Source: Obrimoposthia wandeli (Eukaryota). Taken from it: a DNA stretch of 64,000 nt. This document shows, piece after piece, positions 1-21,636 of this stretch. The DNA is taken from assembly GCA_977020255.1 (NCBI GenBank), contig CDROCS010002367.1, positions 1 to 64,000 on the forward strand, written 5' to 3'. A model generated the notes under the pieces. That model did no database searches and was not told the DNA's origin. It saw nothing but the letters and a program-made list of their open reading frames with translations. The position numbers were made by a program, and so were the translations under genes. Numbering within the stretch: position 1 is the first letter of the stretch; each line of letters opens with the position of its first letter.

Positions 1-1125
1 ATCAACTGGTTCAGTTACGTGGTAACTAGTCGCGGCATATGGGGTAAGAACACCAAACTAAAGCATTCATTGCCCCTAGTTGGCAATTAGGATACATTCA
101 TTGCCTTGCTTATTTGGTAATTGCGAGTGTAATATATTTTAACCATATTCATTGTCCCTAGCTGACAATTAGGATGGCTGTCTCTTTAACAAATCATTGT
201 CCCTAGTTGACAATTAGGATTGTCCATTTTTATTCATTGTCCCCAGTTGACAATTAGAATTGTACGAGTTTTTTCCCGTAAGATTCATTGTCCCCTAGCT
301 GACAATTCGGTTTCACTCATTGTCCCTAGTTGACAATTTCGGTCCACTCATTGTCCCTAGTTGACAATTCAGTCCTCATCCCTAATTTGACAATTCGGAA
401 CAAATACTCATTGTCCCCTAGTTGACAATTCGGTCCACTCATTGTCCCTAGTTGACAATTCCGGTCCCTCATTGTCCTAATGACAATTCAGTTCCTCATT
501 GTCCCTAGTTGACAATTCGGTCCACTCATTGTCCCCTAGTTGACAATTCGGAACTAGCCTCATTGTCTTAGTTGACAATTCGGAGTAAGTTTTTCATTGT
601 CATCGTTGACAATTAGGTTGTTTGGGAATCATTGTCCACAGTGGACAATTCGTGGTTAAATACTCAACAGATAGAGTTACGGACTCAAGAAACTTTATCA
701 CACATAAAGTTGAGTCGAAGAAATTTAAAGGTGCGTTATAGATTAACCAACCTAGGAAAAAATAACCCTAAAATCTCGATCACCGAACGTAAAATCGATA
801 CGTGGTTCATCCCCACTTCTTGTAGAGACTTACAGAAGTCTTAGGAATTTTACCATACTTTTTAGAAATACGTACATAAACGTATTGTTGTGTTTAGTTA
901 CATGTGAATTACCAATAAACAATTTCCTACATTAGAGAACAAGTTGTTTTACCCTTCAGAATAAAGACATCAAATCAAATACCTTCAGATAGTACAACAG
1001 AGATAGGCAACCATAACACTAAGTAGGCCACGACCAACTTTAAGACCTGCTTCTAATCAGAACTCACGTTGGGGCCCTCCGCACATAAGAGGATCTGTAC
1101 CAAGTTTCGTATAGAAACCCCAACA
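1..1125 (+). repeat. 5' LTR (3' part only)
   Basis: Aligns by eye to ~21601-22543 and ends ...GAAACCCCAACA; AATAAA at 914-919 is shared with 22345-22350. Confidence 0.9.
65..652 (+). repeat. Array of palindromic ~21-bp units CATTGTCCC(C)TAGTTGACAATT with short variable spacers, in the 5' LTR
   Basis: About 16-17 units by eye; each has the ATTGTC...GACAAT inverted repeat. Confidence 0.9.
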
Positions 1126-1133
1126 TATTAAAG

Positions 1134-1151
1134 TGGTGCCCCGAGTGAGGA
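1134..1151 (+). promoter_or_regulatory. Primer binding site, complementary to the 3' end of elongator tRNA-Met
   Basis: TGGTGCCCCGAGTGAGGA is the reverse complement of ...TCCTCACTCGGGGCACCA, matching the animal elongator tRNA-Met 3' end as recalled (one position differs from the human form); 8 nt after the LTR end. Confidence 0.75.
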
Positions 1152-1183
1152 TAGCTCGTCGGACACAGCGAATTCACGTGGAC

Positions 1184-1480
1184 AATAAGTTCAGATATTG
1201 AGAATAAGTTTCAGGTAAATAGAATAAGTTTAGATAAGTTTCAGATAATTGAGAATAAGTTTCAGGTAAATAGAATAAGTTCAGATAAGTTTCAGATAAT
1301 TGAGAATAAGTTTCAGGTAAACAGAATAAGTGCAGATATTAGAATAAGTTTCAGATATTGAGAATAAGTTTCAGATAAATTGAGAATAAGTTTCAGCAGA
1401 AGAATATAGACAATTGAGAATAAGTTTCAGAAGAAGATATAACAAATTTAGAATAAGTTTCAGAAGAAGATATAAGTAAA
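1184..1480 (+). repeat. Leader tandem array A (GAGAATAAGTTTCAG-based units, ~20-30 bp)
   Basis: Repeated GAGAATAAGTTTCAG(G/A)TAAAT units. Confidence 0.85.
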
Positions 1481-1481
1481 T

Positions 1482-1925
1482 CCTCGAGTTAAGAATTTGA
1501 TAAGTGTTGAGAAATCGAGTAGATTTGTTCCTCGAAGTTAAGAATTTGATAAGTTTGAGAAATCGGGTAGATTTGTTCCTCGACGTTAAGAATTGATAAG
1601 TGTTGAGAAATCGAGTAGATTTGTTCCTCGAAGTTAAGAATTTGATAAGTGTTGAGAAATCGGGTAGATTTGTTCCTCGACGTTAAAATTTGATAAGTTT
1701 GAGAAATCGAGTAGATTTGTTCCTCGAAGTTAAGAATTTGATAAGTGTTGAGAAATCGGGTAGATTTGTTCCTCGAAGTTAAGAATTTGATAAGTGTTGA
1801 GAAATCGGGTAGATTTGTTCCTCGAAGTTAAGAATTTGATAAGTTTTGAGAAATCGGGTAGATTTGTTCCTCGAAGTAAGAATTCGATAAGTTTTTGAGA
1901 GATCGGGGGGATTTGTTCCTCGAGT
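1482..1925 (+). repeat. Leader tandem array B (~49-bp unit, ~9 copies)
   Basis: CCTCGAAGTTAAGAATTTGATAAGTGTTGAGAAATCGGGTAGATTTGTT repeated; followed by a ~90-100 bp direct duplication (1932-2020 / 2039-2130). Confidence 0.9.
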
Positions 1926-2571
1926 CAGTAAATTTGATAAAGTGAAATCGAGTGGATTGATAATCGAATTAATTAATTGAATAAGTTAAGTCAGGAGACT
2001 CTGTCCTAGAACTAAATAAAAATTTAAAAATCGTAAATAAATTTGATAAAGTGAGAATCGAGTGGATTGATACTCGAAGTAATTAATTGAATAGGTTAAG
2101 TCGGGAGACTCTGTCCTCGAACTAATTAAAGAGATAAATCGTAAAATAAGAATTGTGAAATAAGATAAAAGAGTAATAAGTAAATTGATATCGTAAACGA
2201 ATACATAATTGATAAGACAACGGATAATAGAAAAGGACCCGCGTATAATACTAGAAGACAAAGTCAGATTCCCAAGGAAGAGATAAATAATAATAAAGTT
2301 AACCGAATTGAACAGGTTCCCCAAACAGATAACAAAGTAACAGAAAAAGACTAGAGTCGAAGAAAACGTATCAGACAGAGACGTAAATCAATCAGCAGTT
2401 TCAACCGACAGTTTTGAGCTGACTGAGTTATTTGGTGAAATAAACCCAGAAGAAATTGATAATCTTGAAGTTCAAAACCCAGAAGAATTTGAAATTGCCA
2501 ATCCAGTAGTGATTGAAGAAGTTCAAGTAAATAATATTGAAGAAATAGTTGAAGACGATATAGTTGAAAAT

Positions 2572-4246
2572 ATGGCTCAACAAGGAGCTCCACCAGATAT
2601 TAATGCAGGAAATAATGTAGGTGAAATGAATGCCGAGCAGTTGGAACAAGCTTTAAATGCGACGTTGAGACCCAATTTTTCAGGATCATTGCAGATTACA
2701 AAGTTTAAAGGAGATGAGGAAAGTATTTGTGACTTCCTCGCAGAATATTCGAGTTGTGCAGATGTTCAAGGATGGAACGATAAAGAAAAATGTGTCAGAG
2801 TACAGGCACATTTAACCGGATTAGCACTTGAAGTGTATAAACATTTGACAGAAGCAGAACGCATAGATTGGCCAACGTTGGAAAATGCTTTTATTGGAAA
2901 ATTGGTATTAGGAGACTTAGCCAAAGTAAATAAGCGACTCATGAGAGAACGGAAACAGAAACATGATGAAGGCGTGAATGAATACGCGTATGTTTTGAGA
3001 ACCTTGGCCGCAAGAGCGTACCCATAAATCAGGACGGTAATCCTGTAGCTCCAGAAGCACAAGCAGCGGAAAATGACCGGAACCAAAATGAAATGGCAGA
3101 GGTTTTGTTAGATATATTTAGAGGAGGATTGAAAAGGGACATTAAAGTGTTATTAGCAGTATCGGATACAAATGATTTTGATAACGCCGTGCGAAAGGCG
3201 AGAGAGATTGAGAAAAATATAAAAAATAACGCAGCATTGGCAATTTACGCAATGACTGCAGGTGACGACGATAAGACAAAGGTCTTCGTGAATAAAACAG
3301 AACCGAGTAATTTTCAGAATCGAAATTATGGACAAAATAAGTTTGAAAAAGTAGATGAATCTAGTAACGGAAATAGAGATAATTTCCGAAGTAGGAATCG
3401 AGATGATTCGAGAGGTAGAAATAATAGTGAGTCTTGGAACAGGAATCGAGATGATTCAAGAGGTAGAAATAGTAATGATTCGTGGAATAGAAATAGAGAT
3501 GATTCCAGGAATAGATTTAATAGAGATAATTCAGGAAATCGCCAACCTTGGAGAGGAGACGATAGGAATTATAACCCAAACAGAGGAGAGCGAAGTGACT
3601 CTGGATTTGAAAATAATACAGGAAGTAGTGACGGAAGATTCAATAATCGAGGAAGCGGTTTTAAATCGAATTTCCGAAGAAATGATTTTAGAGGACGATA
3701 TGATAACAGACAGAATAGTCGTCGAGTACAGTTCGAAGATGAACAGAATAAGATAGATATTCGAGGGAGAATAATGTGTTACACGTGTAAACAAATGGGT
3801 CACTATTCGAGAGATTGTACGAGAAGTAAAGAGTTCGGAACTAACAGATTTGGAAATAATAATTTCGGTAATACTAATCTTGGAAATAATTATAGAGGAT
3901 ATAATTCACCCCGCCATGGAATAGAGGTGGTGGATATACTCCACAGCCATGGAGACCGAATAATCAGTATACAGATAGACAACAGTCACCAGGTAGATAC
4001 AATAACTATGCAGACAGACAGCAAGGAGCTGAGAGATACAATAATTATGTAGGACAGCAAGGAGCTGAGAGATATAATAATTCCGGTAGATATAATAATA
4101 ATAATGTTGACAAGACAAATAGTCGCGAGAGTTCGCCGAAACCGAAAGGAAATTTTAGTTATGTAAACGATGACAGCGATAGGAATCGCGAGACCGAACT
4201 TCGACGCGAAATAGATTTTGAAGATAGTGATAGTAAATTTGAACGA
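2572..4246 (+). CDS. gag: Gag: capsid domain, Arg/Asn/Gly-rich repeats, CCHC zinc knuckle (frame breaks at ~3025 and ~3910)
   Basis: ATG in good context at 2572; Ty3-like CA (KFKGDEESICDFL...WNDKEK...LTGLALEVY...W..L...F; FRGGL); CYTCKQMGHYSRDC at 3777-3818; after a -1 correction at ~3910 the frame runs directly into ORF 4247. Confidence 0.9.
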
Positions 4247-5955
4247 ATGTTGGGAATAATTAAAGATTCACCACATACAAAGATGGCGAATTCATCTACG
4301 TTGTCGAAACAAGAAAAAAGTCTACACTCGAGAGAAGAGATGAATGATTTAATGAACCAAATACTAGAAGCGTATGAGACACCAATAGAGAAAACGTGTA
4401 ACGCACAACCTATGACTGATCACATAGAAGCAGCAAGAAATGCTACGAGTATGGAAAATGTAGAAAAGATAATTAGTGAAGCTAAGGAGACGTTGAATCA
4501 ACCGTTAGATGAAACAAGTGAAGCTCCAGAAGTTTTGGCCAAATTGCAAACAATTAAAGTACACAGATTGGAAGAAGTGCGAGCAGAATTGGTTAAACAT
4601 AGTCATGATAACTTGGGTTACAAAGAAGTACCACGAGGATTATTGAAAAGATATGGTCGCTACGTACAGAGATCAAACCAAAAAGGAACGATGAAAATTT
4701 TGCTTCGATTAATTTCCGGACAGATTATACATGAAAAACTTAACGTGTATCAGACAATGAAAACGATTCGAAAAAAGTTGGCAGAAAAACTTGAAATTGA
4801 TGGAATGAATATGTTGTTCCATTATAAAGGAAGATCACTAGATGATGAGGACGTACCAGTCGAGTGTGGATATCCGATAGGAAACGAATTAGAGGAAAAA
4901 ATTGATGTCATCACTGTAGGACGTCAAGAGTTAGTAGATAATGAAGGATTAACAGAGATATTAAACTCTGCGTTAGAAATGATAAAAACGCCTATAGAAA
5001 TTTTAGACAGTTCAAGCGAAAGCGGAGATAATGATGTAGCTGAAGCTTGGAACAAGACATTCACACCAGAACCGTACGTAGCTGAATTACAAGACGTGAA
5101 TTTAGAAAATGAGTTGACGACTCCAGTGGTCGAAGTACCACCAGAACCAGATATAATTCAAATCAGACAAGATGAAGTCACGGATACAGCTAACCAAGTG
5201 AGACAAAACGAAAACGTAACCCAACTAGTAGGAGAAGACGAAATCTCCGAGATTGTAGATTTGGATTCACCAATTTGGCATGCTGCATACAGAGATAGAC
5301 AAGCAGAGCAGATGATGCGACAAAACGAAGAGATTGGCCATGAAGAAGGACCAAGTCAAGAGATACAGTATAATGGTGAACCGTATGATCCAGGCGAGAA
5401 TCAAACTGAGTATCAGTATTTTCGAAGAGGACCTGGAAGACCTAGAAAAGACGGGAGTATATTACGAAATGTTCTAACTGCACCACAGACTGATGAGGAG
5501 AGACATCTAAGCATTGGACAGTTAGCAGCGTCATTAGAGCAATATAGTACAGGAGCGGAATGAAGATATCAGAGGCGATATGAATTGGGAAGTTGCAAGT
5601 TGTACCGATCTACTTACGTGAATTCTAAGGCAAGTGAATCCAAAGTTGTTCAAAATGTACAAAAGATGAAACAACCGATATAACAGACAATTTGACTAAA
5701 GCAGTTAGATCACAAATGTCTGCAGTAAAGAGAATGACTGCGAATCATGTATACCATGCATCAATAGATAGATTTTATGACGGTGAAGTTTTAGCGAGAT
5801 TATGTGGAAACCAGACTACAAATAAAAAGTTAATTACAGCGATCACATATCTATGTTTCCAATTGACGGAACGAACGAGCCAACCTCACGAAGTCAAACA
5901 AGGAATAAATGAAGCGATGTATTTGATCGAGAATGTATTAGCAGAAACGAATTGA
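4247..5955 (+). CDS. Gag C-terminal extension with SUMO/ubiquitin-like domain (4691-4923), acidic linker and AT-hook (5423-5449)
   Basis: MKILLRLISGQII...LFHYKGRSLDDEDVP...EKIDVI resembles Ub/SUMO beta-grasp sequences; RRGPGRPRK is an AT-hook core; in-frame TGA at 5561-63 and a -1 break at ~5662. Confidence 0.6.
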
Positions 5956-6097
5956 CGAAAACGGAGGTTGGGCAAAATTAAGTGACTACGCTAAAACCAT
6001 TGTGGAAATGAACGAAGACGATGACGAACAATGTCATGAGAATAGTCAAAGAGAAAATAAACAATACTGTCCGAAAGAAAGAAATAATCAACCAAAT

Positions 6098-7970
6098 ATG
6101 TCCACAACAATGATGATGATGATGTTAGTAATGTTCATGGGAATGCAACAGGCATCAGGATTGATAGCATACGACTGTAGCATACCAAAGATGGGACAAA
6201 AGTATTCACTGCTTGACAGCGAAGACTGTCCAGAATCACAACCGTCAAAATTAGAAGTTAAAGGTGTTGAAAACTACTTTGTGTATCAGGATGTTGATAA
6301 AGTACAAGTAGAAGTGAAGAATGTGCAATCCATTCAAGTTATCACGAATTCTATTGTGGCCATAAAAGTTTTATGTCGGAAATCACACCTACCACACCGT
6401 ACAAGGCACATAAGGTTTTGCCGAGAGATTGCGAAGACGCATTTCGAACGGGAACGATAGAGGTAGACAAGAATTACAAACCTGAAGTAAAAATTGGAGT
6501 GAGACGATACGAAACAGTCACGAGAGTCGGACAACGATGGGCTGATGGATCTTGTGACGGAGAAACAAAAAACGTGCGTGGAACCAAAGTATCTGAGTTA
6601 GTAATGGACGTAACTTACAAAATCGACTTAAAAACATGGACCGCCAATTTTGATAAAAAGACACAACTAATGATGAAGTATCCAGAATGTAAAATGACAG
6701 ATACATCTTGTTTTACAGGCGAATCCACAATTGTGTATCAAGTGAATCCGAAGCAATGCTCTTTAGTATTTTTGAAAGAGATTAGTTTTAATAAAATAAA
6801 AGGATTCCTGTATAATAAAGATGGAGAAGGGTTCCTGTATAATAAAGTTGGAAAAGGATTGCTAAATGAAACAAGACCAATTCCAATGACAAAGACACCT
6901 ACACTGTTAATGGCAACATCAATAGAAGAAGGATTGATATTTATTAAAAAGAGAAACAAAGCGCGATGCGGAATGACTGTTAGTACTACAAACTATCCAG
7001 GAATAGTTTTGTCCAAAGAAGCAATAGCATTGGCAGAAACCAAGCTAAAACCAAAAGATATGCAGCTACACACGTATTTTAATAATAAAATTGATTTCTA
7101 TTATCATAAAGGATTGATGCAAATGGAACAGTTATATCGGATGATGATCGAAAGAGATTGCCAGCTAAACAAAGAGATCGTAAGAACAAAGTTAGCATTA
7201 GCTATTACGAATCCAGACATGGTAGCACCATTATTACCCTTGGATGAAGGAGTATTTGCTAAAACCATGGGAGAAGTATTGTATACTTACAAGTGTAATA
7301 AAGTAGAGGTACAGTTGAGAAAAACAGATCGATGTACGAGTGAATTAGCAGTAACGTATAATTTAAAAGATCTTTTTGTTGAACCAATCACGAGAATGTT
7401 ACTTCCAAAAGACACTCCAACTAAAGAAATCAGCTGCTCTAATATAATGGCACCTGAATATCAGATGACGAATGATCTATGGATAACGTTACCTGATCGG
7501 AAGCCAACGAAAACCCCAGCGATGATAAGAATGACGAATCTTAAAGGTAAAATGAAATTCCAAGCGGTGGAAAATATGGAGAACGCAGGATTGTACAATG
7601 AAAAAGATTTAAAAGCGGCGTGGAACGAAATAATGTTTCCAGTAAAAAGAGCCAGAGTACTTACGGAGATGGTACATCGAGCATTACCGCCAGGAGCTAG
7701 ATATGCGAATTTCGATATGTTATTATCGCCAAGTCATTTCAAGGAAGCAGCACATCAGACACTTAGAAAGATGTGGGGGAAATTCCTTGTTTTAGGACAA
7801 TTATTTTCGGGTATCATAGGTATTTATGTTATAATTAAATTTGTGCAGGTAATTATAGCCCAGGTGTTGTCTACGTATAGTTTATACAGGATAACCGGAA
7901 TCACCTGGCAACTTATAATTGGATGTTTTCCATTTTTAGCAAAATATCTAATGCACCATCATCACGAGAA
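6098..7970 (+). CDS. env: Envelope glycoprotein, chuvirus-like (class III, gB-like); frame break at ~6318
   Basis: Signal peptide MMMMMLVMFMGMQQASG then LIAYDC; after correction ECAIH...FYCGH; YFNNKIDF..., RDCQL..., GEVLYTYKC.KVEV, C..EL.V, LFVEPITRML, AGLY...IMFP, and two C-terminal hydrophobic segments all follow the chuvirus-like glycoprotein pattern. Confidence 0.85.
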
Positions 7971-8313
7971 CGAGTTAAGAGCCCTCAAGAAGGAACAACA
8001 CCAAACGAGAACCATGATGCGAGAACCAAGAAACTATCGAGACGACAACGACGACGATAATGATAGTCCAGGAGTATATGCAAAGATACCAGGAAAACCA
8101 AAGATTCCGTTACCAGACAAGGAAGAAGTGGCGTTAAACATATATCCAATGAAGGAACTAAAGGAGGAGAAGGAAAAGTTCAAGAGAGGCATCTTAATGG
8201 TAAGATGGCCTAAAGTGAGCTACAGTGAAATTCCACAAGCAGAGGAAAAAGACAAAAAAGATAATTCCAGAAGAATTCTGAAATCTAGGATATCAAATGA
8301 GAATCCAAATGCT

Positions 8314-8612
8314 CCACCACAAGTAGCAGTAACATTGAACGGAAGAGAATATCTTGCCGAGGTTGATACCGGATCTGCAGTATCAGTACTGAGTAAAGAA
8401 ATCTTGTCATCAAAAGAATTAAGAGAAGTATGTCCTAGAAAACAGACATTTGTTAACGTGAATGGTACAGATGTAGTGTCGGAAGGAACACTGAAATGTT
8501 CATTGAATATCGATGGAAGAGCATTGCAGTTAAATGCTAGAATATTCACAGATTGCGGTAGTCCAGTCATGATTGGGATGGACGTAATACGAATGTTTGA
8601 AGGAATAATTAT
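8314..8612 (+). CDS. Retropepsin-like aspartic protease 1, in frame with env
   Basis: LAEVDTGSAVSVL (DTG 8365-8373) and IGMDVI motif within ORF 6373-8931. Confidence 0.9.
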
Positions 8613-8844
8613 ACTACCAAACAACAAGAGTTATAAGAATGACAGTTCAGTGAGAGAGATAAAAATGTTGAGAGGACCCATAGTCGAAAAGGAAAAATGC
8701 ACTACGTTCCGTATGGGAGGTTCGTACCCAGACAGAAAACAGGAAGCGCTAGTAAAGTCGATACTTCACTACAAAAACGTAAACCTCGGACCACAAGAGA
8801 TGACGAGGAGAAAAATAACATATGTGAATCTGTCAGAAAGGGAT

Positions 8845-9840
8845 CCCATGAGATTCGAGAGAAAGAGACGAAATATATTAGAACAGTACTATTCAAAGAA
8901 ATGGCACGTAAAATGGCAAGATCAGGTTTAGAAATGTTAAACGCGACAAGTAGTTATGGTCATGAGGAAGTAGTACGATGCGTATGGTGTAGAGTAAAGT
9001 TTAGAGAGTGGGAAAAGAATGAGAAACCCAATGAGACGTCATAAAGAGATGCACCAAATTGTCCATTTCTTTTGAAACTAAAAACTTCAAACGTACCAGA
9101 AATCCAAACGGGAAAAGCACCCGATTTCGATTACAGTGACGGGATTCCAAAAGGAGAATCAGCTCTAATAACAGGTAGAGTAATAACGAATAGTCGAATT
9201 GAAGATATATTCGAAGTTATGCGAGAAGTGAACGAATGTGACGAACAGTATCGAGAAATAACCTTCGAAGACCCAAGACTTAAAAATTGGCAAAAAGGAC
9301 TTTTGCTATAAAAAAGGATGGTAAAGACGTAATTAAATGCCACAAGTGTAAAAAGAACGAATTATCGACAGATATACTCTTGAGCTACCTAAGAAAATTT
9401 TACATCATGAATTTTGCGAATTTTGTATTTTTAAAAACAAAATAAAGCAAAAAGAACAGAAAACCGAATGTATAATCGAATACCAAATCACACGGAAAGA
9501 GATTTTGGCTCAACAAGACACACCGGTAGTGTCATTCGTGAGAAGGTTATATCCAAAAGAAGCAGAAAGAATCAGAGAATTGGTAGAATTAAAAATAAAA
9601 ACTACGCGAAACGGATACGGATCGATTTTTGAATTACTGCGAGATAAAGATGACAGTACAATTGAAACAAAAGAGAAAGAGTACATAAATGAACTAGAAT
9701 ACGTACTAGAAGATCCGGAATGCGCAGTTTGCATGGTCAACAAAATAGAAGTTGCCTTTCTACCATGCGGACATGTAAGAACATGTCGGAGATGTGCGAA
9801 TGAAATGGTATCATGTCCAATTTGTCGAAGAATAATAGAT
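8845..9840 (+). CDS. Inhibitor-of-apoptosis (IAP) module: BIR, degenerate BIR, UBA-like, RING
   Basis: VRCVWC...W...P..(RH)KRDAPNCPF restores C-x2-C-x16-H-x6-C after a +1/-1 pair at ~9036-9046; second BIR-like D.IKCHKC...HHEFCEF at ~9260-9430; IRELVELKIKTTRNGYGSIFELL resembles the IAP UBA; CAVCM...FLPCGH..TC..CA.....CPICR at 9721-9828 is an IAP-type RING. Confidence 0.88.
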
Positions 9841-9949
9841 CGACAAGTGAGAAACATTAGATTTCACTATCCAAACAAAGGAAGTGGACTGACAGAGTGT
9901 AATAATTCGATAAATACAATATACCATATGGGAAACATAAATGGAGCAC

Positions 9950-12900
9950 AGCGACCAGCAGCTATCATTAGAGTAAATAATTTAAGAGTAAAAGCCTTAA
10001 TTGATACAGGTGCTGTAGCTTCGATAGTAAGTGAAGACTGTTTGACAGAGGAACAGAAACGAACAATGGCAGAACCAGATGAATTCTTGGTATCGGTCAA
10101 TGGAGACCCTGTAAAAGTGACAGGAATATTACCATGTACATTTATAATTGGACGTAATACGATCACTATACCAGTTAGAATCATGAAAGAATGTCCTGAA
10201 CCTACAATTTTAGGAATGGATGTATTATCACAACTCAAAGGGATAAGTATTGATTTACAAGATCCAAGATTGAAGGATAGCACATCAAACAGACAAATAA
10301 ACCAAATTGATGTAATTATAGAGAATCCTATAAAAATCGGTAAAAGATCACAATTTCTCATTCAAGGTCACACATTATCAGAAGATAAAGGACCAGTTGT
10401 GTTCGAACCATCACGAGATTTCATAGAGAAATACGAATTACCAGTTGTGAGTACAGTATGCCTGATCGAAAACCACAAAATACCAGTTAGACTGATGAAT
10501 ACAACCAACAATGACATTCTATTATACAGAGGAATGAGGTTGGGAAAGATAGCACAGATGGAGAATTCCACTGTATGCGCTATGAAACTCGATAAAGATA
10601 CGAATGATTACGAAGAAATAGTAATCCAATCAGAAAGACTGACAACTAGAGAAAAGAAACAATTACTTGATCTAATACATAAATTTCCGAAAGTAATTGC
10701 AAAAAATCCATATGACATAGGAGAAACACCTGTCATAAAACATACAATACCACTGACAGAAGACAAAGTAGTCAGAAGAAGACCATATCGAGTACCATTA
10801 CAATTACAAGATGAAGTAAAAAGTCAGATCGAAGATATGTCTAAAACAGGAGTAATTAGACCGAGTTTTCGCCATTCTCAGCACCTGTGGTGCTGGTAAA
10901 AAAGAAGGATGGGAAAATGAGATTCTGTATAGATTTCAGAGAACTGAACAAGATCACAAGAAAAGATGTGTATCCATTACCTAGAATCGAAGAGATGCTC
11001 GATAAATTGGGTAATTCAGATTATTTTACGACATTAGATTTGCAAAGTGGGTACTGGCAAATCGAGATAGAGGAAGAGGATAAACACAAAACAGCCTTTT
11101 CCTGCGGAGATGGATTATACGAATGCGAAAAGATGCCATTCGGACTGACAGGAGCTCCAGCAACATTTCAGCGTTGCATGAATTTTGTACTCGCATCGTG
11201 TGCAAACACGATGGTTTATATTGATGACATAATAATATTTTCGAAAACGTTCGAAGAACATTTAAAAAATCTGGAAGTTGTATTTAAAAGACTGGAAAAC
11301 GCTAAATTAAAAGTTAAACCTACAAAATGCGAATGGGCTAAAGAGCGAGTAACATTTTTAGGACATATAGTATCGAAAGAAGGCATTCGACCGGATCCAG
11401 CAAAGATCGAGAAAGTAAAAGCGCATTTAGCGCCAAAGACTGTTAAGGAGATACAGAGTTTTTTAGGTCTTGCGAATTATTATAGACGATTTGTTGAACA
11501 TTTTTCAGATATAGCAACACCATTGAGAAAGTTGACGAGGAAAGATGAGAAGTTCATATGGGAGAAGAAGCCCAACAAGCGTTCGAGCATTTAAAAGAAA
11601 GACTGATAAAAGCACCGATATTAGCGTTTCCAGATATAAACCGACAATTCATACTCATGACAGATGCAAGTAACTATGCTGTAGGAGCAGTATTGGGACA
11701 AGAGGATGACGAAGGAAGAGAACACGTCATCGCGTATGCGAGTAGAGGATTAAACAGAGCCGAAAGAGGATACTCTGTTATCGAAAAGGAATGTCTAGCC
11801 ATAGTGTATTCATGTAGACAGTACAGACACTATTTGCTAGGACAAAAAGTATTCCTGTATACAGATCACAAACCACTACAGTTCTTATATAAACATAGAG
11901 ATGAGATGAGTAGATTAAACAGATGGTTTCTAAAATTGGCCGAATTCGATCTAGAAATCCGTTATAGAACCGGAAAGTCGAACGGCAACGCAGATTGTTT
12001 GTCGAGATTGACAAATGTAGACGAGAAAGGAAACATAATTCCAGAAGAAGATGAAACCAATGACCAAAAGGAGAAGCAAATCTACTGACGATTTTGCTAA
12101 AAACGGGTAAAATAGACAAAGAAATCATCAAAGAACAGAAAGAAGATGAAGAGCTGAGTCTAATCAAAGAATTGTTGGTGAAAGGAGATCTAAACGATGA
12201 AATGACGAAAAAATACTCGATAAAAGAAGGAATCTTGTATATTGTCAATAATGTCGGAAAGATAGTAGTAGTAATTCCGAAGTCATTGAAAACAGCAGTG
12301 ATGATCCAGTATCACGACGGAACACTAGGAGGACATCTGTCAGGGCGAAAGACAATAGCCAGAATCAAAGAGAAGTACCATTGGGATGGTATGGAAGACG
12401 ACATAAAACAATGGTGTAAACAATGTAAAGTATGTTTAACCAGAAAAGACACCGGAACTCGTACTAAAGTTCCACTGAAACCAATGCCAGTTCCTTTGGC
12501 ACCAATGGAATTCACAGCGATGGATATATTGGGACCATTGAGAGAATCAAGTAAAGGAAACAAGTACGTCATAGTATTTACAGACTTTATGACGAGATGG
12601 GTAGAAGCATATCCCATGCAGAACCAGAAAGCTGAAACAATAGCGCAGATTTTAGTGGAAGAGATAATATTTCGATACGGAGTGCCTAGAAAGTTGTTAA
12701 CGGATCAAGGTAAGAACTTCACTGGAGAAGTCATAAAAGCAGTATCGAAGATATTCGGAATCATGAAGTTACAAACTTCACCATATCACCCACAGACAGA
12801 TGGTCTGGTAGAAAGGTTTAATAAAACTTTATGTATGATGGTACAATCCTATTGCTCAGACAAGCAAGAGGATTGGGATAAATATTTACCTTCATGTTTA

Positions 12901-13400
12901 TATGCTTACAGGAATTCAGTTCGAGAGGCGACGGGTCACACACCATTCTATCTGATGTATCTCAGACAGAACAATATGCCGATGGATCTGGAGTGGACCG
13001 AGCCAACATCTCAGTACCTAGAAACTGAACAATACATTGTCGTCATGAAGGAAAGATTACAAGATGCTTGGACCAAAGCCGGATTGAAGTTGAAATTCAA
13101 TCAAGAAGGTTACAAGGAACAATACGACAAAAAAGCAAAACCACATGAATTTAGAGTCGGAAATCAAGTGATGATATTTTATCCAGTCATCGAACCAGGT
13201 CTATCGTTTAAACTTCATAGACCATACAAAGGACCATACAAGGTGATCCAGACAACCTCAACAAATTTGAAAGTAATCAACGAAGAGAATCGGAACAAGG
13301 AACCGATGATTGTACATGCAAATCGATGCAAATTAGTACCAAATAAAGATAATGCGTCACGATATGAGTTAAGATCACAGAAATCGAAATCGAATACCAA
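9950..13400 (+). CDS. pol: Pol: aspartic protease 2, reverse transcriptase, RNase H, integrase (breaks at ~10868, ~11560, ~12082)
   Basis: ALIDTGA (DTG 10003); RRRPYRVP; VLVKKKDG.MRFCIDFRELN; YIDD 11217-11228; TDASNYAVGAVL and TDHKPL; IN HHCC, AMDILGP, TDQG, GLVERFN, GPY. Confidence 0.97.
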
Positions 13401-13521
13401 TACCATTAAACTTACACGAATGGTAAGTGATCGGAACTACATAAACATGATGACGAGTGGTAGCGAGAAAAAACCAGCGAGAATTGGTATGCTCAGAATG
13501 AAGTACCAAGAGGAAAAGGAA

Positions 13522-14495
13522 GTAATCCGACACATCGCACCACAAGAGATATTAGAAGAAGACGAAGAGATAATAGTCGTTTTCGAAAAAACACAACCAA
13601 CAGATGTAGCTAAAGAAGTCATTGTGAAAGATGCACTAACAAACGAATTTCTGTGCGAACTTAGAGTGTCATACTATGACGGAAATACACTAGTCGCAGC
13701 GCTTTATCAAAATTCCAATGTGTTTACGACTGAGAAAGTGATAATCGAAATCACATTGACACCAAACATAGTTGCATGGCAGAACTATGACAGTACTGAA
13801 GCAGGACTAGCCAGTCAGGAAGAAAAAGAACCGGCCGGTGGTCACATACTGCATGGTACACCAAAAAGACTCAAACAAGAATACCACGATGTAATAATGG
13901 TATTACGTAATTCACATGGGAAAAGAGATATCATGAGAGTCCATTTAATCGACGCTGACACTGAAAAGATAATTTGTCAGATGGACACCAAATACTTTGA
14001 TGGAAAGACAATTGTATGTTGTATACCAGAATCTCACCGGTTAGACACAGATCAAACGGAAGTATCTGTAAGGTTGAGCGTAATAGAAGGATTCCATTCG
14101 CCAACCCATCCGGAAGTGACTAACAATAAAATCATCAAAGCAACGGCAGAGTTACGCATTGACAGCGGATACCGAAAGTGGGAAGCTAAAATAAAAAACC
14201 ACAAAGAATCAATATGATCCGAGAACAAGTGACCAACTCAATCCAGCCAAAATATCATGCTGAAATAGTATCATCCGCGCCAAGTGTGATCACATCGATA
14301 AACGACGAAATTATAATTTTACTAAAAAATCGATGGCCGTCATCAACCGAAATACGAGTAAATTTAATTAATTATGCGAAAACACCGATATCTAAGCTGA
14401 ATGTTACCTATTTTGATGGATTGTCCATCATGGGTAAATTGGAAACAATTGTCATGTGCTATGGAGCACAGTTCCAAGTTGAGATACTTAAAGAT
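13522..14495 (+). CDS. Three tandem ~80-aa Ig-like (IPT/TIG-like) repeats after integrase
   Basis: Repeats at ~13522, ~13843 and ~14262 share I..xP....(D/E)(I/V)I(V/M/I), a V...D/N segment and Y(Y/F)DG.(T/S)(L/I). The repetition is clear; the IPT fold is inferred. Confidence 0.55.
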
Positions 14496-14951
14496 AGCGT
14501 AATACCATATCCGATTCACAAATACGAAGGGGAAATCAATCCAATTATTCTAACCCCTTCATTAATTTCAGTTCAGACAGACATACCAGAATACCCTTCG
14601 AGCGAGTCTAGTGAAGACAGCGAACCAGAAAGTAACGATACAGAATCAACAGAATCTGAAGATAACATAATAGAGCGATTCGGAAGAACCATGGAGGTTG
14701 AATTCGCTAAAGAGAGCAGAAAAAGACAAAACATAGAATTCGTGAAACAGAATATACAAGAAAGACGAATTAAATCAGCAGAAGAGACCGAGTCGGAAGA
14801 AGACTCAACAAAGGAACAGACACCAGAGACAAAGATGAATATCTCTCCAGCAATACGAATGCTGAGAGGAAAGAAACTGGCGAAACTATCCAACATCGAC
14901 GAACAGATAGAGAAGAGATTAGAAAGACTAAAACTTGAAGAGTCAGAATTA

Positions 14952-15380
14952 ATGCCACCAATGAGTGAGATCATTCCAGGTAAGTTATACCTCGGAAATG
15001 TGGAGGATGCAACAGATGAAAAGAAACTGTTGGAACAAGGGATAACATACGTGATCAACGTTACAATGAATCACAAATCACAATATCAGACAATCAGAGC
15101 TATGACATTAAGAGTAAAAGACTCAATGGACGCTAATCTTCTCGAATGGTTCGTAGAAACAAACGAAATACTTCACAGAGAACTCCGGAACCAAGGAAAA
15201 GTATTGGTACATTGTCAGAAAGGAATTTCTCGATCAGCAACTCTAGTATTAGCATACCTAATAAAGACTAGACGAATGCAGGTACTAGAAGCGCTAAAAT
15301 ACCTACAGGAGAGGAGAAGTATTGCAAACCCAAATCTTAATTTTTTGGGACAGTTGGCAAATTACCAACTTCTGTTGCAA
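14952..15380 (+). CDS. Dual-specificity (MKP/VH1-like) protein phosphatase with intact catalytic motif
   Basis: EIIPGKLYLG...GITYVINVT...VKD...VLVHCQKGISRSATLVLAYL...ANPNLNFLGQL; HCxxGxSRS at 15210-15236. Confidence 0.95.
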
Positions 15381-15477
15381 GAACAAAGACGGATGGATGA
15401 CATTCCTGAGGATCCAAAGGAAAAGAATTTCCTCCAAGCATTATCATTGACCGGGTTATTCTTAGCCGGAGTCGACA

Positions 15478-15900
15478 AAATTACACAGATAATGCCAAAA
15501 GTATTTTTATGTCATCCAGGAGATATAGACACTGCTGGATTAAAGTTCCACAGTATCAACCGAGTAATCAAAATTGTTGAAGTCGGAAACGAGATAATTA
15601 GTCTGTGTCAAAATACTGAAGACGACACCACTCGATACATACATGCTTCCAATCGAGAAATAAACGATGCACAACAACATCTGACGAAATTGACTCAAAC
15701 CATCCAAGCCGAAGTCACAGAAGGAAACGGCGTTCTGATATATCAGAAAAAAGGTACAATGTTAGCGCCAACCATAGGTGTATCCTTGTTGGTAGAGTAC
15801 CATGGTCACACGCCAGAAGAAGCGATGGTCTACATCAAACAGAATAGACCAGATACGGAATTCAAACCGTTACTCGTTCGAGAAATAGAGAAATACACCG
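15478..15900 (+). CDS. Second, catalytically dead DSP-like domain (pseudophosphatase)
   Basis: ITQIMPKVFL...INRVIKI...GNGVLIYQKKGTMLAPTIGVSLL...EEAMVYIKQNRP parallels DSP1 but lacks the catalytic Cys and Arg. Confidence 0.75.
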
Positions 15901-15944
15901 AAAAGAGGAAGCAACAACGAGAAACAAATTAAGCTACAACAACA

Positions 15945-18632
15945 GTGCCCAGCTTTCAATACCAAAGATTGCTAGCGATAGGCTTGTTAAGTTGTCTAAT
16001 GCCGATAACGGGAGCACAGGAGATAGGCTCCAACCACGGAAATAGTTCCTGGTTCAACGAAATCCACAATTACACCATACAGTACCATACGCCGGCACTG
16101 ATGATGCTATTAGTGTTGTTAGGACTAATTGATGTATGGATCATCCGAAAATGTCTTCGATCCGTGAGAACCGACAGTAAAAGATTTCAGTTTGTAAAGA
16201 TGAAAAGACCAAATGGACCAACGAACAAAGTGCTTGTGTATCTAGACGAAAGGATCGAAGACAACATAGTAAATGAAGCGATATTTTACCCACAAAACAG
16301 AATACTGAATCAATTTCGAATAGATTACGAAGCTGACCGACAGCGCACACTTGACCGAATATCAACAACATTCGCCGGATGCAAGCGAAGAAAACTAGTT
16401 GTAAAGGAAATACAAAAAGATGCTGATACAAAAGGACCAACGTATATATTCGACGGCGATGTCATCAAAACACGTGAGTATGGAAGTAAGAGAGTGATAA
16501 TTGAAACAATGGAAGGACATAAAACATGCTTGTCCGCCAAAAATGGATTCGGAAAGTTGACGATACAAGGTAAACCGGTACAGTTGATTATCGGAAGAAA
16601 TGGAATCGAGGAGATGTTAAAACAACGACAGACAACAAAACGATCCAGTCAGAAACAGATATCTCTCAAACGATTGATAATTAAAACCCTTTGCAAAAGG
16701 TCAGTCAAGGCCCTGTGCACCGTTGCACAAGGATTGATTTATGGAGTAGTAATTGGATTGGTACTGCAAGCCATGCCAACCAGTAAAGCCGAATTGATGA
16801 CACTATCCGAATATAATTTACATTTGAGAAATCTAGACAACACCCTAGAAATAATCAAGACATCCCACAGTAAAGCCGTGATGATCATGTGTGTAAAAGG
16901 ATGTCCAGGACGAATGTGTATAGTCCCAGCGACCGAAATGATAACACTTAATGGACATTATGGAATTAGTGTTGTCACATGTGAAGACTACATATTTGGA
17001 CAAACTAAAATAGTACTTCTCAGTGACATGTCCAACCAAAGTGCACACAAATTTAAAATATTAACCATCAAGAGTAAAGGAATACCAGCAGTACGTTACG
17101 GTATTCTAGAATTGGTTAATCCAATACTCGCACTGATCATTGGATTTATAATATTAATATTACTCATCTTGTTTTGTTGTACAAAGATAGAGTTGAGATC
17201 AAAAAAGAAACGTCATGATCTCGCAAGACGAACAGGTCAAATGAACTTACAAAAATTCAACACAATTATACCAAGACCACCATTTCTAGATGAACCAGCA
17301 CCAGAGTACCAGCCAACGATATATGAACATATCGAGGAAAGAACGTACTATATGAGTAATTTGACTTGTTTCATTGAAGTTCCTGAGTTTAGGAATCGAA
17401 CGATCATAGGAATCATGCTGATCATACAAATCACCACTACCAAGGCTAGTTATGAGATCATGATCAGTAAATGGAGACAAGACGTAATACGGGCAGTATA
17501 CATAGAAATCCCCCTTCTAAAAACAAATCACGTAGTAGACATTCATCTACAGATGTCAGCAACCGACAATATCGATCAGAAATTGTATGTCATCCGACAG
17601 GTCAGAATAAAAATCGACCAAAATACACCCGATTACAATTTAATATTATTGTATCATGAAAGAGTGTTATATCTACGGATAACAATATCAAAGAGGAAGC
17701 GGATTATCCAAAGTATCCGAACAAAGTCATTAATATTGCCTAGAGATGAGCGCATCTGGAAAATTGTCGACAGGATTATTATCACAGGTAGACGACGTAA
17801 AGCCGTATGGAATTCCGTTAGGATATTTTTCAGATTGCTAGAAACCGACAGAGTAACAGTAATGTGTTCCAACCCAGATGGCGGAATCAGATTCGAAATC
17901 CAAAGCCAAATGTTAGTACCACATTTTAACACAGAATGTCTGTGTAATCGAATTTCCAGTAATACTACAGAGACCTCGACCATAATCATGATAATAACAG
18001 GTGAAATATTCTACATAACTCTAAGATACCAGAACCGTCGATTTCGTAGATCCGGTATAAGTATCAAACCCAGGAAAATCATTCCCAAAAGGCCAATCCT
18101 AGTCAGAAAGAAGGCAAAAGTAAACGAAAGTAAACGTCATTCCAAAAAACCGACAGTGATCAGAACAAAGACAGAAGCGAAAGAAAAAGAGCTCAATCCC
18201 AGAAACCAAAGTACAATTATTAAGAGGACAAGAGTGAGGGGAACGATCCCACTAGATCCCAAACATCATTTCCAATCCAAAATAATAATACCTGTTCCAT
18301 CAGAAACAAAACACCCAAATCCCCGAATTTTTAGAAAATCGGACATAATACATGGAAACCGATCAAAACCCATGGAAATGTCATTCGAACCGACAAACAA
18401 CAAAATGAAGTATGATTATAAATCATCAGACAGCGGAATAACAGCGGTCAATGCCCTAATTGGAATGGCCGTAGTGTCAACAGCAGTGGTTCTATTGACA
18501 ATCGTGTGCGTGAAAGGCAGTCAAGTATGCCCAAGAATACGACGAAAATGCGAAGGATTGCGATGCTGTGACACACCCACCATGGAGGAAGTGGAATTGC
18601 GACCCTTACCTCCGCCTCCAATCAAGATATGA
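15945..18632 (+). CDS. Unknown multi-membrane-segment protein (signal-peptide / TM / tail units); in frame with the DSP ORF across TAA 15930-32
   Basis: 895-codon open frame with several hydrophobic stretches, signal-like ends (PITGA, PTSKA, TTTKA), Tyr motifs and a Cys- and Pro-rich C-terminal tail. Confidence 0.7.
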   Translation: MPSFQYQRLLAIGLLSCLMPITGAQEIGSNHGNSSWFNEIHNYTIQYHTPALMMLLVLLGLIDVWIIRKCLRSVRTDSKRFQFVKMKRPNGPTNKVLVYLDERIEDNIVNEAIFYPQNRILNQFRIDYEADRQRTLDRISTTFAGCKRRKLVVKEIQKDADTKGPTYIFDGDVIKTREYGSKRVIIETMEGHKTCLSAKNGFGKLTIQGKPVQLIIGRNGIEEMLKQRQTTKRSSQKQISLKRLIIKTLCKRSVKALCTVAQGLIYGVVIGLVLQAMPTSKAELMTLSEYNLHLRNLDNTLEIIKTSHSKAVMIMCVKGCPGRMCIVPATEMITLNGHYGISVVTCEDYIFGQTKIVLLSDMSNQSAHKFKILTIKSKGIPAVRYGILELVNPILALIIGFIILILLILFCCTKIELRSKKKRHDLARRTGQMNLQKFNTIIPRPPFLDEPAPEYQPTIYEHIEERTYYMSNLTCFIEVPEFRNRTIIGIMLIIQITTTKASYEIMISKWRQDVIRAVYIEIPLLKTNHVVDIHLQMSATDNIDQKLYVIRQVRIKIDQNTPDYNLILLYHERVLYLRITISKRKRIIQSIRTKSLILPRDERIWKIVDRIIITGRRRKAVWNSVRIFFRLLETDRVTVMCSNPDGGIRFEIQSQMLVPHFNTECLCNRISSNTTETSTIIMIITGEIFYITLRYQNRRFRRSGISIKPRKIIPKRPILVRKKAKVNESKRHSKKPTVIRTKTEAKEKELNPRNQSTIIKRTRVRGTIPLDPKHHFQSKIIIPVPSETKHPNPRIFRKSDIIHGNRSKPMEMSFEPTNNKMKYDYKSSDSGITAVNALIGMAVVSTAVVLLTIVCVKGSQVCPRIRRKCEGLRCCDTPTMEEVELRPLPPPPIKI

Positions 18633-18755
18633 TAAGTCAGATGAGGTTGTAGATAAATTAGTGTGTGAAATATGTAGAAATGTCTAGAAGCGATTGTACA
18701 AATAGTAGAAATATATAAAACTCATGTAGAAATTAATCATCATCATGTATTTAGA

Positions 18756-19055
18756 ATGTCCGAAGAATGCCCAATATGTTTGGAAGATCTAACCGAACGA
18801 AGAACAAGACCCGAAACCTGCAACCATTTACACCACGAGGAATGTTTATCGACATGGATCAGAACTTATGGACAGTTCGGACATCCAACATACCCTTGTT
18901 GCCCTGTATGCAGAAGACAATTCGCAAGATTCATCATGTTAGAACCCAACCAAGAGGATGTATATGTACAGGTGGTATTCTGTTGGAAGAATTTCGGAGA
19001 GTGTTGGTGTTATTACTGTTTGTCAGAACGACAAAATCCGACCACTTTTGTGTAA
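18756..19055 (+). CDS. RING-H2 protein 1 with extra C-x6-C-x-C-x2-C motif
   Basis: CPIC...CNHLHHEECLSTW...CPVCR; CWKNFGECWCYYC. Confidence 0.88.
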   Translation: MSEECPICLEDLTERRTRPETCNHLHHEECLSTWIRTYGQFGHPTYPCCPVCRRQFARFIMLEPNQEDVYVQVVFCWKNFGECWCYYCLSERQNPTTFV

Positions 19056-19115
19056 ACATCACACAACCACCAGTCCTCAATCGAGCCCAAATTCAACATC
19101 AACCCTCTCACAGTA

Positions 19116-19421
19116 ATGTCTGGAGAATGTTCCATCTGCTACGAGAGCATTGTGGACTTCTACACCAAGCCCAACAACTGCGACCACCTCTTCCACGTCG
19201 AATGCCTCGAGACGTGGATCCCCATTGCCAACAGCAACAATCCCCTCGACTTCCCAACCTGCCCGATGTGCAGAGCGACCTTCTCAGTACACTACGTGTA
19301 CAACCAGGACAGCCTCCAAGCAGTGGTACCCATAGTACACTGCTGGAAAACCATCTGCGATTGCTGGTGCTCGTTCTGCGTGGAGGAGCGAAGCACAGGC
19401 CAGCCCAACTCCCAACAATAA
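19116..19421 (+). CDS. RING-H2 protein 2 with extra C-x6-C-x-C-x2-C motif
   Basis: CSIC...CDHLFHVECLETW...CPMCR; CWKTICDCWCSFC. Confidence 0.9.
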   Translation: MSGECSICYESIVDFYTKPNNCDHLFHVECLETWIPIANSNNPLDFPTCPMCRATFSVHYVYNQDSLQAVVPIVHCWKTICDCWCSFCVEERSTGQPNSQQ

Positions 19422-19760
19422 TCGAAGGTAACTTTCTGACTTGAACGTGACATCATGAACTACCCTGTGTATCGCATACCGCGATAAATTAGCTACCATA
19501 ATTGTAATCATAATTATATAATCTTGTGAACTGTAAATTGACCATTACCATTTTTATGTATGATGTTTAACTGAAAATTGTAATTATTATACTGAAATTC
19601 TAAAAGACAATTTTTATGCTTAGTGTGAATGCGTAAACATGCCTAAAATCGGAACAAAACTCGGTAGGATTAAATAACTAAGGATTCGTTTTGAAATAAA
19701 ATTTAAATTAACGATGAGAACGGTGAACCCCAAATTGAAAGGAGTTATTTTCTTGTGCAG

Positions 19761-20258
19761 ATGAAGTGTACCGTCTGCCTCGAGAAAATTTGGACGGCAT
19801 CGGCATCCCCTGTCGGCTGCCGTCACAAATTCCACGAATCCTGCCTATATACTTGGGCCCGACTTCGACCCGAAGGACACGTCAATTGTCCATTGTGCCG
19901 TACTCCCTTCGCGGAATGGACACTGCAGTGTCGAGGGCGCCACAAGGGCACCCATTCGCTCACCAGCTGTATTGGTGGCGAGCACTGCCATTGCCCCAAT
20001 TGTATCGCGCGCCGTCGCGATGCAAAACTCGCCCTCCGCGAGAAATATCGGTCAACCCGCGACCCTCGCTCATGGCAGCGTGGCCGTCAAATATGGCTCG
20101 GAAATCGCGGAGTACACGGGCGGTACACGACCATTTTTCACCCGAGCCAACATCTCACCATGCACCAGCAGATGATACTGTACAATGGCGGCCCACCATC
20201 GTATCCAGAACTACCACTGGAGCAGGTCTTGCTGTTCCTGAAGGACAGGAACGGTTGA
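19761..20258 (+). CDS. RING-H2 protein 3 with extra C-x5-C-x-C-x2-C motif and basic tail
   Basis: ATG at 19761; CTVC...CRHKFHESCLYTW...CPLCR; CIGGEHCHCPNC. Confidence 0.88.
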   Translation: MKCTVCLEKIWTASASPVGCRHKFHESCLYTWARLRPEGHVNCPLCRTPFAEWTLQCRGRHKGTHSLTSCIGGEHCHCPNCIARRRDAKLALREKYRSTRDPRSWQRGRQIWLGNRGVHGRYTTIFHPSQHLTMHQQMILYNGGPPSYPELPLEQVLLFLKDRNG

Positions 20259-21069
20259 CATATCCCTGACAATCTTGTTGACATATCCCTGACAATCACC
20301 CTTAATCTTTTCTTGTGTGTAAATTTTTAGTTGTGATAAGTAATAGTGTATGGTTTGAGACTTGCTCCAAATTACACATTATGATTTCCACAAAAAACCG
20401 GGATTTTGAAAATTTTGTTTTGGGCTTGTTTGATGAGTTGAATGATTGATTTTGTAGGGATGAACCTAAAATCAACAGCCAGAGGCTAGTATAAGTAAAA
20501 TCGATACGTTCCGGGGACGTAACTTTTTTGGAACCCCCGAGGTATGTTAGGTTTAAGAATTAAGAAATTAAAATAATTTAGTCGATTAAATACTAAAATA
20601 AAAATCCTTGAAAGCAAGGTTGAAAATTAAATTAAATATTAATTTTAGATTCAAAATTGAAATTAGTGGAAGTTAGGATAAAAATTAGGAGGACCACGAA
20701 GGTCGTGTATAGTGTAGGATATATAAGGTTAGATTAATTAACCCAAAAGTGCAACAAAGGCACATTAATTAAAGCAAAAAGAAAAAGGGAACAATTTCGA
20801 ACGTCAATCAAGGTAAGCACATTTTCGTGCAGTTAAATTGGAGTACTTAAATTAATTTTTCAGCTGCCGCCAAAACTCCAGTTGAAACAGCTGTCGACAT
20901 TGCTGATTGACAGCCAAGGTTGAAGAAATCGACTATAAAAGTCGTCGACCAAAAAACAAACAGACACAACAGGAAAAATCAATACTTCAGATCGACTGAA
21001 GAAATCGACCACATATTGGTAAGTGGTGATTTGGTGAAATTTAGATTAAACCATTTTAGATCACAAATT

Positions 21070-21540: not shown

Positions 21541-21636
21541 AAGAAGCCGATCAGCTCAATAATCCCAACTAGACCCAGTACCGGATTGACGCAGTCGCAG
21601 CTAGTCGCAGCATATAGGTAAGAACACCGACTAAAG

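Follow-up and report, generated by a model that had tools for sequence, protein, structure and literature searches.

Giant gypsy-like elements known as Burro or GYPSM1 have been described from planarians (Jurka, 2007; Grohme, 2018; both as cited in PMC6431247, 2019). According to the text of PMC6431247, the env of Burro lies in frame between a BCL2 domain and the protease, was the first such env found between gag and pol, and matches glycoproteins of arthropod and fish mononegaviruses, while the review likened it to gypsy Env. Additional domains resembling MATH, ankyrin, SMC, and dUTPase vary among Burro elements, and some of them were found by HHpred alone (PMC6431247). An env ahead of pol is also characteristic of the gB-type errantiviruses (Sacco, 2022, as cited in PMC13524379), for which PMC13524379 (2026) reports Ty3/gypsy elements of the order GAG-ENV-POL in Nematoda, Bryozoa, and Platyhelminthes whose pol sequences do not form a single group, and makes the case for an ancient origin. 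In 114 arthropod elements, the same paper reports a gypsy pol accompanied by an Anakin-like glycoprotein; its main text does not discuss how env is released, and the words 'polyprotein', 'fused', and 'frameshift' do not occur there.

In the Chuviridae (Jingchuvirales), the glycoprotein G of Pfam family PF24664 is the product of a stand-alone gene of about 650 residues, whereas the env analyzed here is placed inside a retroelement polyprotein, on a separate long branch, with 18-20% identity to these proteins and 14 cysteines in common. LTR elements with a PF24664 glycoprotein are likewise known from Anakin and other BEL/Pao elements (10.1101/2020.02.15.950899; PMC10084718), but as described there env follows pol, in contrast to the gypsy element studied here, in which it precedes pol. 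As of 2023, no clear Gypsy capture in arthropods was reported in the text of PMC10084718. Both gag, env, and pol in one frame and a chuvirus-like env in a Gypsy element have, however, already been published, as the texts on Burro (PMC6431247) and on the GAG-ENV-POL errantiviruses (PMC13524379) make clear, so that the arrangement is not new.

The window element and its family

The window, that is, the whole stretch of 64,000 nt that was analyzed, opens with a retroelement whose domain order was obtained from a Pfam search of 16 ORFs:

1..22543 (+): LTR retroelement, Ty3/gypsy, 22.5 kb (LTRs, Pfam domain order)
1..1125 (+): 5' LTR, truncated by the contig start (matches the 3' LTR; its end is defined from three other copies)
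1134..1151 (+): primer-binding-site candidate, 8 nt past the LTR end (same stretch in three other copies)
2806..3821 (+): gag, a capsid-like stretch (Retrotrans_gag E 0.0065, below cut-off) and one CCHC knuckle (zf-CCHC E 3.1e-6) with a frame switch between them
4700..4870 (+): ubiquitin-like domain (Pfam ubiquitin E 0.014, in another copy 0.003; below cut-off)
5653..5975 (+): Bcl-2-like helical domain directly 5' of env, frame switch near 5941 (weak Pfam Bcl-2 match)
6098..6160 (+): predicted internal signal sequence of env, cleavage predicted after 6160 (hydropathy, -3/-1 residues)
6161..7812 (+): ectodomain of env with its membrane-proximal helices, of class III and gB/chuvirus-G-like (Pfam, structure model)
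7813..7869 (+): predicted env transmembrane helix (KD19 2.32; inside model helix 524-579)
7897..8322 (+): amphipathic helix containing a cysteine (KD19 1.26), followed by the charged cytoplasmic tail and a linker
8323..8592 (+): aspartic protease 1 in the env frame, catalytic triad at 8365 (Asp_protease_2 E 1.3e-5, over cut-off)
8901..9843 (+): IAP-like pair of a BIR-like and a RING domain, interrupted by frame switches (zf-C3HC4_3 E 4.1e-12; BIR below cut-off, E 3.7e-4)
9949..10242 (+): aspartic protease 2 with an intact catalytic triad and 28% identity with protease 1 (Pfam, protease profile)
10896..13332 (+): RT, RNase H, and integrase with C-terminal domain, in Ty3/gypsy order (Pfam)
14985..15368 (+): dual-specificity phosphatase domain (DSPc E 8.3e-40)
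15969..18632 (+): three predicted signal-peptide/TM modules at the polyprotein end (signals near 15969, 16710, 17400; TMs near 16089, 17124, 18456)
18678..20258 (+): three short ORFs, each with a RING finger, past the polyprotein stop and ahead of the 3' LTR (zf-RING_2 E 5e-9, 8e-9, 2e-8)
20545..22543 (+): 3' LTR, about 2.0 kb (TG...CA ends, internal tandem arrays)

The protease-RT-RNase H-integrase order between the LTRs identifies the host element as Ty3/gypsy (Metaviridae), and its RT is nearest to Ty3 RT (best PDB match E 2.9e-84; next family E 1.8e-49). The Pfam markers of BEL/Pao elements, Peptidase_A17, DUF1758/1759, and DUF5641, were absent from the matches of the 16 ORFs at E up to 0.1, and env lies 5' of pol; with a Ty3-type RT and none of these markers, the element had rightly been assigned to Gypsy rather than to BEL/Pao. 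The primer-binding-site candidate, which we take to resemble elongator tRNA-Met, was matched by no primer tRNA among the tRNAs from 30 loci, and the 30 nt just 5' of the 3' LTR (20515-20544) are not a plain polypurine tract. A strong A and G skew runs along the element and ends near 20 kb. Tandem arrays of 51-nt and 49-nt units occupy part of the 5' leader (within window 1197-1943), and 22-nt units are repeated inside the LTR (window 21027-21559). The best-scoring tRNAs of the assembly (L081-L110) have their terminal CCA encoded in the DNA and resemble bacterial tRNAs, so that some contigs of the assembly may be bacterial. Elsewhere in the window, exons of a host 7-TM receptor were found on the - strand (33474-33914 and 36564-36959; 7tm_1 E 3e-4, Srw E 0.026), together with decayed RNase H and integrase remnants of another gypsy-type pol, accompanied by a direct repeat of 151 nt, at 56229-58237 and dispersed repeats about 73% alike (47809-48248 / 60920-61354 and 41601-41808 / 49019-49225).

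The likeness to Burro, as the text of PMC6431247 describes it, comprises the giant size, one ORF of about 5,000 residues, thousands of copies, a gag with CCHC, an env in frame between BCL2 and protease with matches to mononegavirus glycoproteins, and the presence of BIR and RING; the ubiquitin-like and BCL2-like domains ahead of env are placed as in Burro, with matches below cut-off. Burro elements exceed 20 kb and have one ORF near 5,000 residues, and the corresponding values here are 22.5 kb and a frame of 5,497 codons. The window element differs in having one CCHC knuckle instead of two or three, and by Pfam search it has no match to the MATH, ankyrin, SMC, and dUTPase of Burro, while its two proteases, post-integrase phosphatase, three signal/TM modules, and three RING ORFs are not named in the text of PMC6431247. 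Furthermore, the env fold is class III here, whereas PMC6431247 compared the Burro env to gypsy Env. Likened to Burro by description, the element is almost certainly a Burro-type giant Ty3/gypsy element of the order GAG-ENV-POL with a gB-type env. It also shares with the gB-type errantiviruses, as presented in PMC13524379, the Ty3/gypsy pol, an env before pol, the gB-type fold, multiple copies, flanking signal and TM, conserved cysteines, and the absence of a furin site, and in the domain I-II segment eight cysteines and flanking motifs align by eye with six Smed C1a rows of that paper. The nine flatworm rows given there are 12-18 kb long with 1-215 near-identical copies, compared to 22.5 kb and thousands of looser matches here.

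With up to 3 mismatches allowed, a 30-mer from env had 6,877 matches in the genome and a 30-mer from RT 6,663 (control patterns, 0), and this ratio near 1:1 places env in nearly every copy. An apparent excess of env over RT among exact 30-mers (4,673 vs 822) was dismissed, the difference being gone at 3 mismatches. As an upper bound, the family could total about 150 Mb, or 11% of the assembly, if every match were full length. The family has multiplied recently: the LTR pairs are 97.3-99.8% alike in all three copies compared, and 4-bp target duplications are present in each of the two copies whose ends are both visible. Signal peptide, env, and protease 1 lie in one frame in 10 of 11 other copies, which were the best env matches and are accordingly biased to intact env, and the Bcl-2-like domain shares this frame with env and protease 1 in nine of the 11 as well as in all six copies picked for long frames. 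These six are open from the Bcl-2-like domain through RNase H, two of them already from the start of gag, and their other frame breaks vary from copy to copy. A single one of 150 RT matches sits in a frame of 5,497 codons, which is as long as a frame reaching from gag to the stop at 18632 should be, and the membrane modules are in frame with the phosphatase in five of six other copies. The fusion of env to protease 1 is hence wider than had been noted, since sister copies have env in frame with gag and all of pol as well. Of 30 older copies examined, 14 have env together with protease 1 in a single ORF, and the domain order is constant wherever visible. Loci L025-L054, considered as a second family, were rejected as such, being 85-100% identical older copies of the same one. 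Copy L018 (4698-8195) is 98.5% like the window to about 16426 and just 88% past that point; the 3' membrane cassette thus exists in two or more subfamily versions, which suggests recombination.

The window copy itself contains about 14 frame switches and one in-frame stop along the element, and as assembled it cannot make the polyprotein; a stop at 15930 separates the phosphatase from the membrane modules. Comparison of the window with short-read contigs of three runs shows one-base indels at five sites within 5600-9100, three of which coincide with frame switches of the window copy; since these contigs pool all copies, assembly error and decay of the window copy are not separable from them. 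The position at a contig end and the LTRs of this copy, whose gapped match is 84-89% though blocks are 99-100% alike, favour assembly error over decay as the source of the breaks. Run X5, labelled as a marine metagenome, yielded 10 low-depth contigs on 5600-9100, eight of them 95-99% like the element, which would be simply explained by host DNA in that sample.

Anatomy and fold of the envelope protein

Signal peptides and TM segments were predicted from Kyte-Doolittle windows and the -3/-1 rule. The signal-peptide-like stretch of env opens at Met 6098 with a run of Met codons (6098-6124), and has a hydrophobic core at 6110-6166, a hydropathy score of only 1.45 (Kyte-Doolittle), and small residues at -3 and -1. 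The predicted mature env starts at 6161 with the six residues LIAYDC (6161-6178), so that the signal peptide upstream of pol and the LIAYDC motif were both correctly recognized from the sequence. Several TM segments had been proposed as well, but just one clear TM helix is present (KD19 2.32); the next hydrophobic stretch peaks at 1.26, and amphipathic helices adjoin the TM, of which the one following it is common to relatives. Because the hydrophobic stretch after the TM is weak, protease 1 is expected to be cytosolic. From 6301 a single frame spans the membrane helix (7813-7869), the tail, and protease 1 (Pfam 8323-8592), which bears out the fusion of env to the protease for this part, whereas a frame switch near 6316-6319 sets the rest of env in the window copy off from its signal peptide and the initial ~50 residues of the mature protein (ORF 5942-6460). 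Both parts match the same Pfam family, PF24664 Monjiviricetes_fusion (E 1.8e-83 for ORF 6301-8931 and E 4.4e-6 for the N-terminal piece). Env has 14 conserved cysteines, which are common to stand-alone G-like proteins, as well as one N-glycan sequon, and no furin site was found in its sequence. Purifying selection on env is indicated by a dN/dS of 0.167 in 30 of 30 copies against one reference copy, the pairs not being independent of each other as they share this reference.

The env of a natural copy (L013) was modelled as a monomer with AlphaFold from a 100-row alignment. The model (pLDDT 90.6) has strand-rich N-terminal domains and a 48-residue central helix, and its best match among solved structures is herpesvirus gB (Foldseek E 5e-13; Z 11.0, rmsd 9.0, 430 aligned). 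The best predicted viral matches are G proteins of chu-like viruses (E 5.6e-43, TM 0.58; E 2.4e-40, TM 0.70), and the six best chu-like G models have TM-scores of 0.49-0.70 at 18-20% identity with env. In searches of the PDB by sequence, a single-sequence query gave no match under E 0.16 and a profile reached gB at only E 0.04. Together with the PF24664 match, the predicted structure indicates that env is a class III (gB-type), chuvirus-G-like fusogen, and the earlier proposal of such a fusogen is sustained by the class III fold of the model.

Origin, release and use of env

A full protein search with env returned 1,216 proteins at E up to 0.001 (a word-index search was less sensitive, with 1 match among 5,939 candidates), and there was no env match in phage records. 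The top relatives are long polyproteins with 27-44% identity in env, followed by stand-alone proteins of ~650 residues. Of the 30 relatives looked up, five bear the name of a chuvirus or chu-like glycoprotein (by protein id, four: P0089, P0041, P0108, and P0141); the remaining named relatives comprise hypothetical proteins, one wasp gene, and a MAG protein with a wrong label. P0007, a relative of the gag-env-pol type, is recorded as coming from a Flavobacteriaceae MAG and is probably eukaryotic DNA in a bacterial bin. In unrooted trees, env and its 15 top matches form one clade on a long stem (FastTree 0.993, with 115 of 121 rows, six having been dropped for coverage under 70%; SH-aLRT 97, in a quick tree of 52 of the 115 rows), which lies outside the four named chuvirus G rows. 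In 11 of the 15 matches the protein includes a protease or RT as well; three more are fragmentary, and the last one stops at env. P0022, the sole row with a BEL/Pao marker (DUF5641 upstream), is sister to a Drosophila chuvirus G and distant from the env clade, and a clade uniting it with this env group was rejected (p-AU 1.7e-56), the tested group having been named after the tree was seen and P0022 not being Anakin itself.

Since env forms a single clade with the envs of other gag-env-pol polyproteins and is under selection, we take it to be inherited and of long standing among these polyproteins; at least one BEL/Pao env belongs to another lineage. Relatives whose RT-RNase H is just 51-61% identical keep env at the same place, and env and RT trees of seven elements have two splits in common at 100/100, differing elsewhere, where RT support is 71-76. 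Of the independent capture by a Gypsy lineage that an earlier note on this DNA put forward, the separateness of the env lineage from a BEL/Pao-type env is supported; a capture by this lineage does not follow, given that env is common to a deep polyprotein clade. A fairly recent capture from a chuvirus by this lineage alone would fit the fact that the nearest named relatives in both sequence and fold are chu-like virus G proteins, as well as the rejected clade with P0022, yet it is very unlikely in view of the long stem shared with the 15 top matches outside the named chuvirus G rows and of the constant place of env next to such diverged RT-RNase H; the trees are unrooted, and the test of a clade with P0022 involved a group chosen post hoc and a protein other than Anakin. 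That env is a passenger or an unrelated insertion in the window copy alone is hardly conceivable: the env of this copy is broken, but env and RT matches are about equal in the genome, the order is constant wherever visible in 30 older copies, and dN/dS is 0.17.

On the whole, it is probable that env is a fixed part of a Burro-type element that encodes one polyprotein of about 5,400-5,500 residues. For its processing, the sequence points to a route that we consider reasonably probable. The Gag, ubiquitin-like, and Bcl-2-like parts would be made in the cytosol, and the internal signal (6098-6160) would direct the ectodomain co-translationally into the ER, where signal peptidase would free the N-terminus of env, with the cleaved signal then anchoring the Bcl-2-like part in the membrane. 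Transfer would end at the single env TM, so that tail, protease 1, and all of pol would remain cytosolic, and protease 1, held at the membrane, would cut env from pol on the cytosolic side; release of env by signal peptidase and the adjacent protease thus appears likely. By the same route the three later signal/TM pairs would yield more small type I membrane proteins. In the structural polyproteins of flaviviruses, hepaciviruses, and alphaviruses, internal signals and stop-transfer helices likewise place signal peptidase on the lumenal and the encoded protease on the cytosolic side; if the model holds, these would offer a working likeness, with no homology claimed, as both the fusogen class and the replication are different. 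Consistent with this route, an internal signal-like stretch is present 5' of env in all 12 relatives with upstream sequence, and 11 of the 12 have a small -1 residue. In P0152 an extra signal before RT is followed within ~15 residues by a TM and basic residues, and this immediate pairing would keep RT cytosolic, as the polyprotein model requires.

Drosophila gypsy env is made from a spliced message, and foamy-virus pol likewise has a message of its own. It is rather unlikely that env or pol is here, too, mostly produced from a spliced or internally started message, with polyprotein release as a minor route. The run of Met codons at the signal start speaks for such a message, and half of the 12 relatives have an in-frame Met before the hydrophobic core, but the other six have none within 45 residues before it; besides, the frame is open on both sides of env in this family and even in relatives 27-44% identical in env, for which a separate message has no need. 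As a single polyprotein gives equal amounts of Gag, Env, and Pol, a ratio ill suited to the assembly of particles, a message that is spliced or shortened may coexist with the polyprotein. In the polyprotein model, env trimers would enable Gag particles to bud and then to fuse with further cells within the same host, and for a use of env in such cell-to-cell spread we see an even chance. The fusogen might instead act inside the host cell or between touching cells, either anchoring particle assembly at the membrane or fusing cells with each other, with no free infectious particle, in line with the missing furin site, the one N-glycan sequon, a cargo (Bcl-2-like, BIR, RING, phosphatase) that points to host-cell control, and a spread route of errantiviruses that the text of PMC13524379 gives as unknown outside Drosophila. 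We regard this as unlikely, however, because selection maintains the full class III architecture, including the 14 cysteines common to viral G proteins, and this exceeds what a plain anchor requires.

Proteases, membrane modules and further cargo

The Bcl-2-like domain (Pfam Bcl-2 E 0.033; viral Bcl-2 1k3k at E 0.13, not the top match) has a dN/dS of 0.116 and protease 1 one of 0.025 (29 of 30 copies), each against one reference copy. The Bcl-2, ubiquitin, BIR, and capsid matches are all below the Pfam cut-offs, and the BIR match falls in a broken ORF. In this family and 12 relatives, a protease profile detected 1-7 domains per polyprotein, all 29 with the catalytic triad, namely seven in P0152, which also has ankyrin, four in P0004, three each in P0003 and P0005, and two in the window element; P0002 and P0011 were among the clade polyproteins scanned, and some clade proteases are located 3' of the integrase. 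Between integrase and phosphatase of the window element (13423-14600), three similar strand-rich units were seen by eye, though self-BLAST and Pfam of this stretch did not confirm repeats.

The membrane modules at 15969-18632 are under purifying selection (dN/dS 0.17-0.52) and have tails with tyrosine and proline-rich motifs. Their best Pfam match has E 0.08, no homolog was found among 2,206 candidates, the best Atlas values of 0.82 and 0.78 are leads only, and the structure model has a pLDDT of 37. Signal-then-TM patterns after the integrase occur in the window element (three), P0003, P0007, P0016, and P0152, and three other long proteins that were scanned, which end earlier, show no such pattern. 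These modules resemble one another weakly, the best E being 6e-5 when six sequences were compared. The C-terminal type I membrane modules of P0003 (2486-2740), P0007 (2259-2561), and P0152 (4363-4726) have a short motif in common, which presumably recalls fibronectin type III but has no Pfam match, and is followed by a Thr-rich stalk in two of them. Neither repeated proteases nor membrane modules after the integrase were found in the literature searched on such elements, although the figures of Grohme (2018) and Sacco (2022), Figure 2A of PMC6431247, and the supplements might show them.

Taken further, these features would allow the tentative and rather doubtful idea that the Burro-clade elements are infectious viruses with a membrane polyprotein in the style of RNA viruses, in which signal peptidase would cut at several internal signal/TM pairs, one to seven active aspartic proteases would free the individual cargo domains, and one or more accessory membrane glycoproteins encoded after the integrase, serving attachment or as receptor decoys, would act beside the class III fusogen. 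Repeated proteases and post-integrase membrane modules bear on how a membrane polyprotein of 5,500 residues is processed, and a young family of ~6,700-6,900 copies, nearly all with an env under selection, is well suited for asking whether gB-type errantiviruses move between cells.
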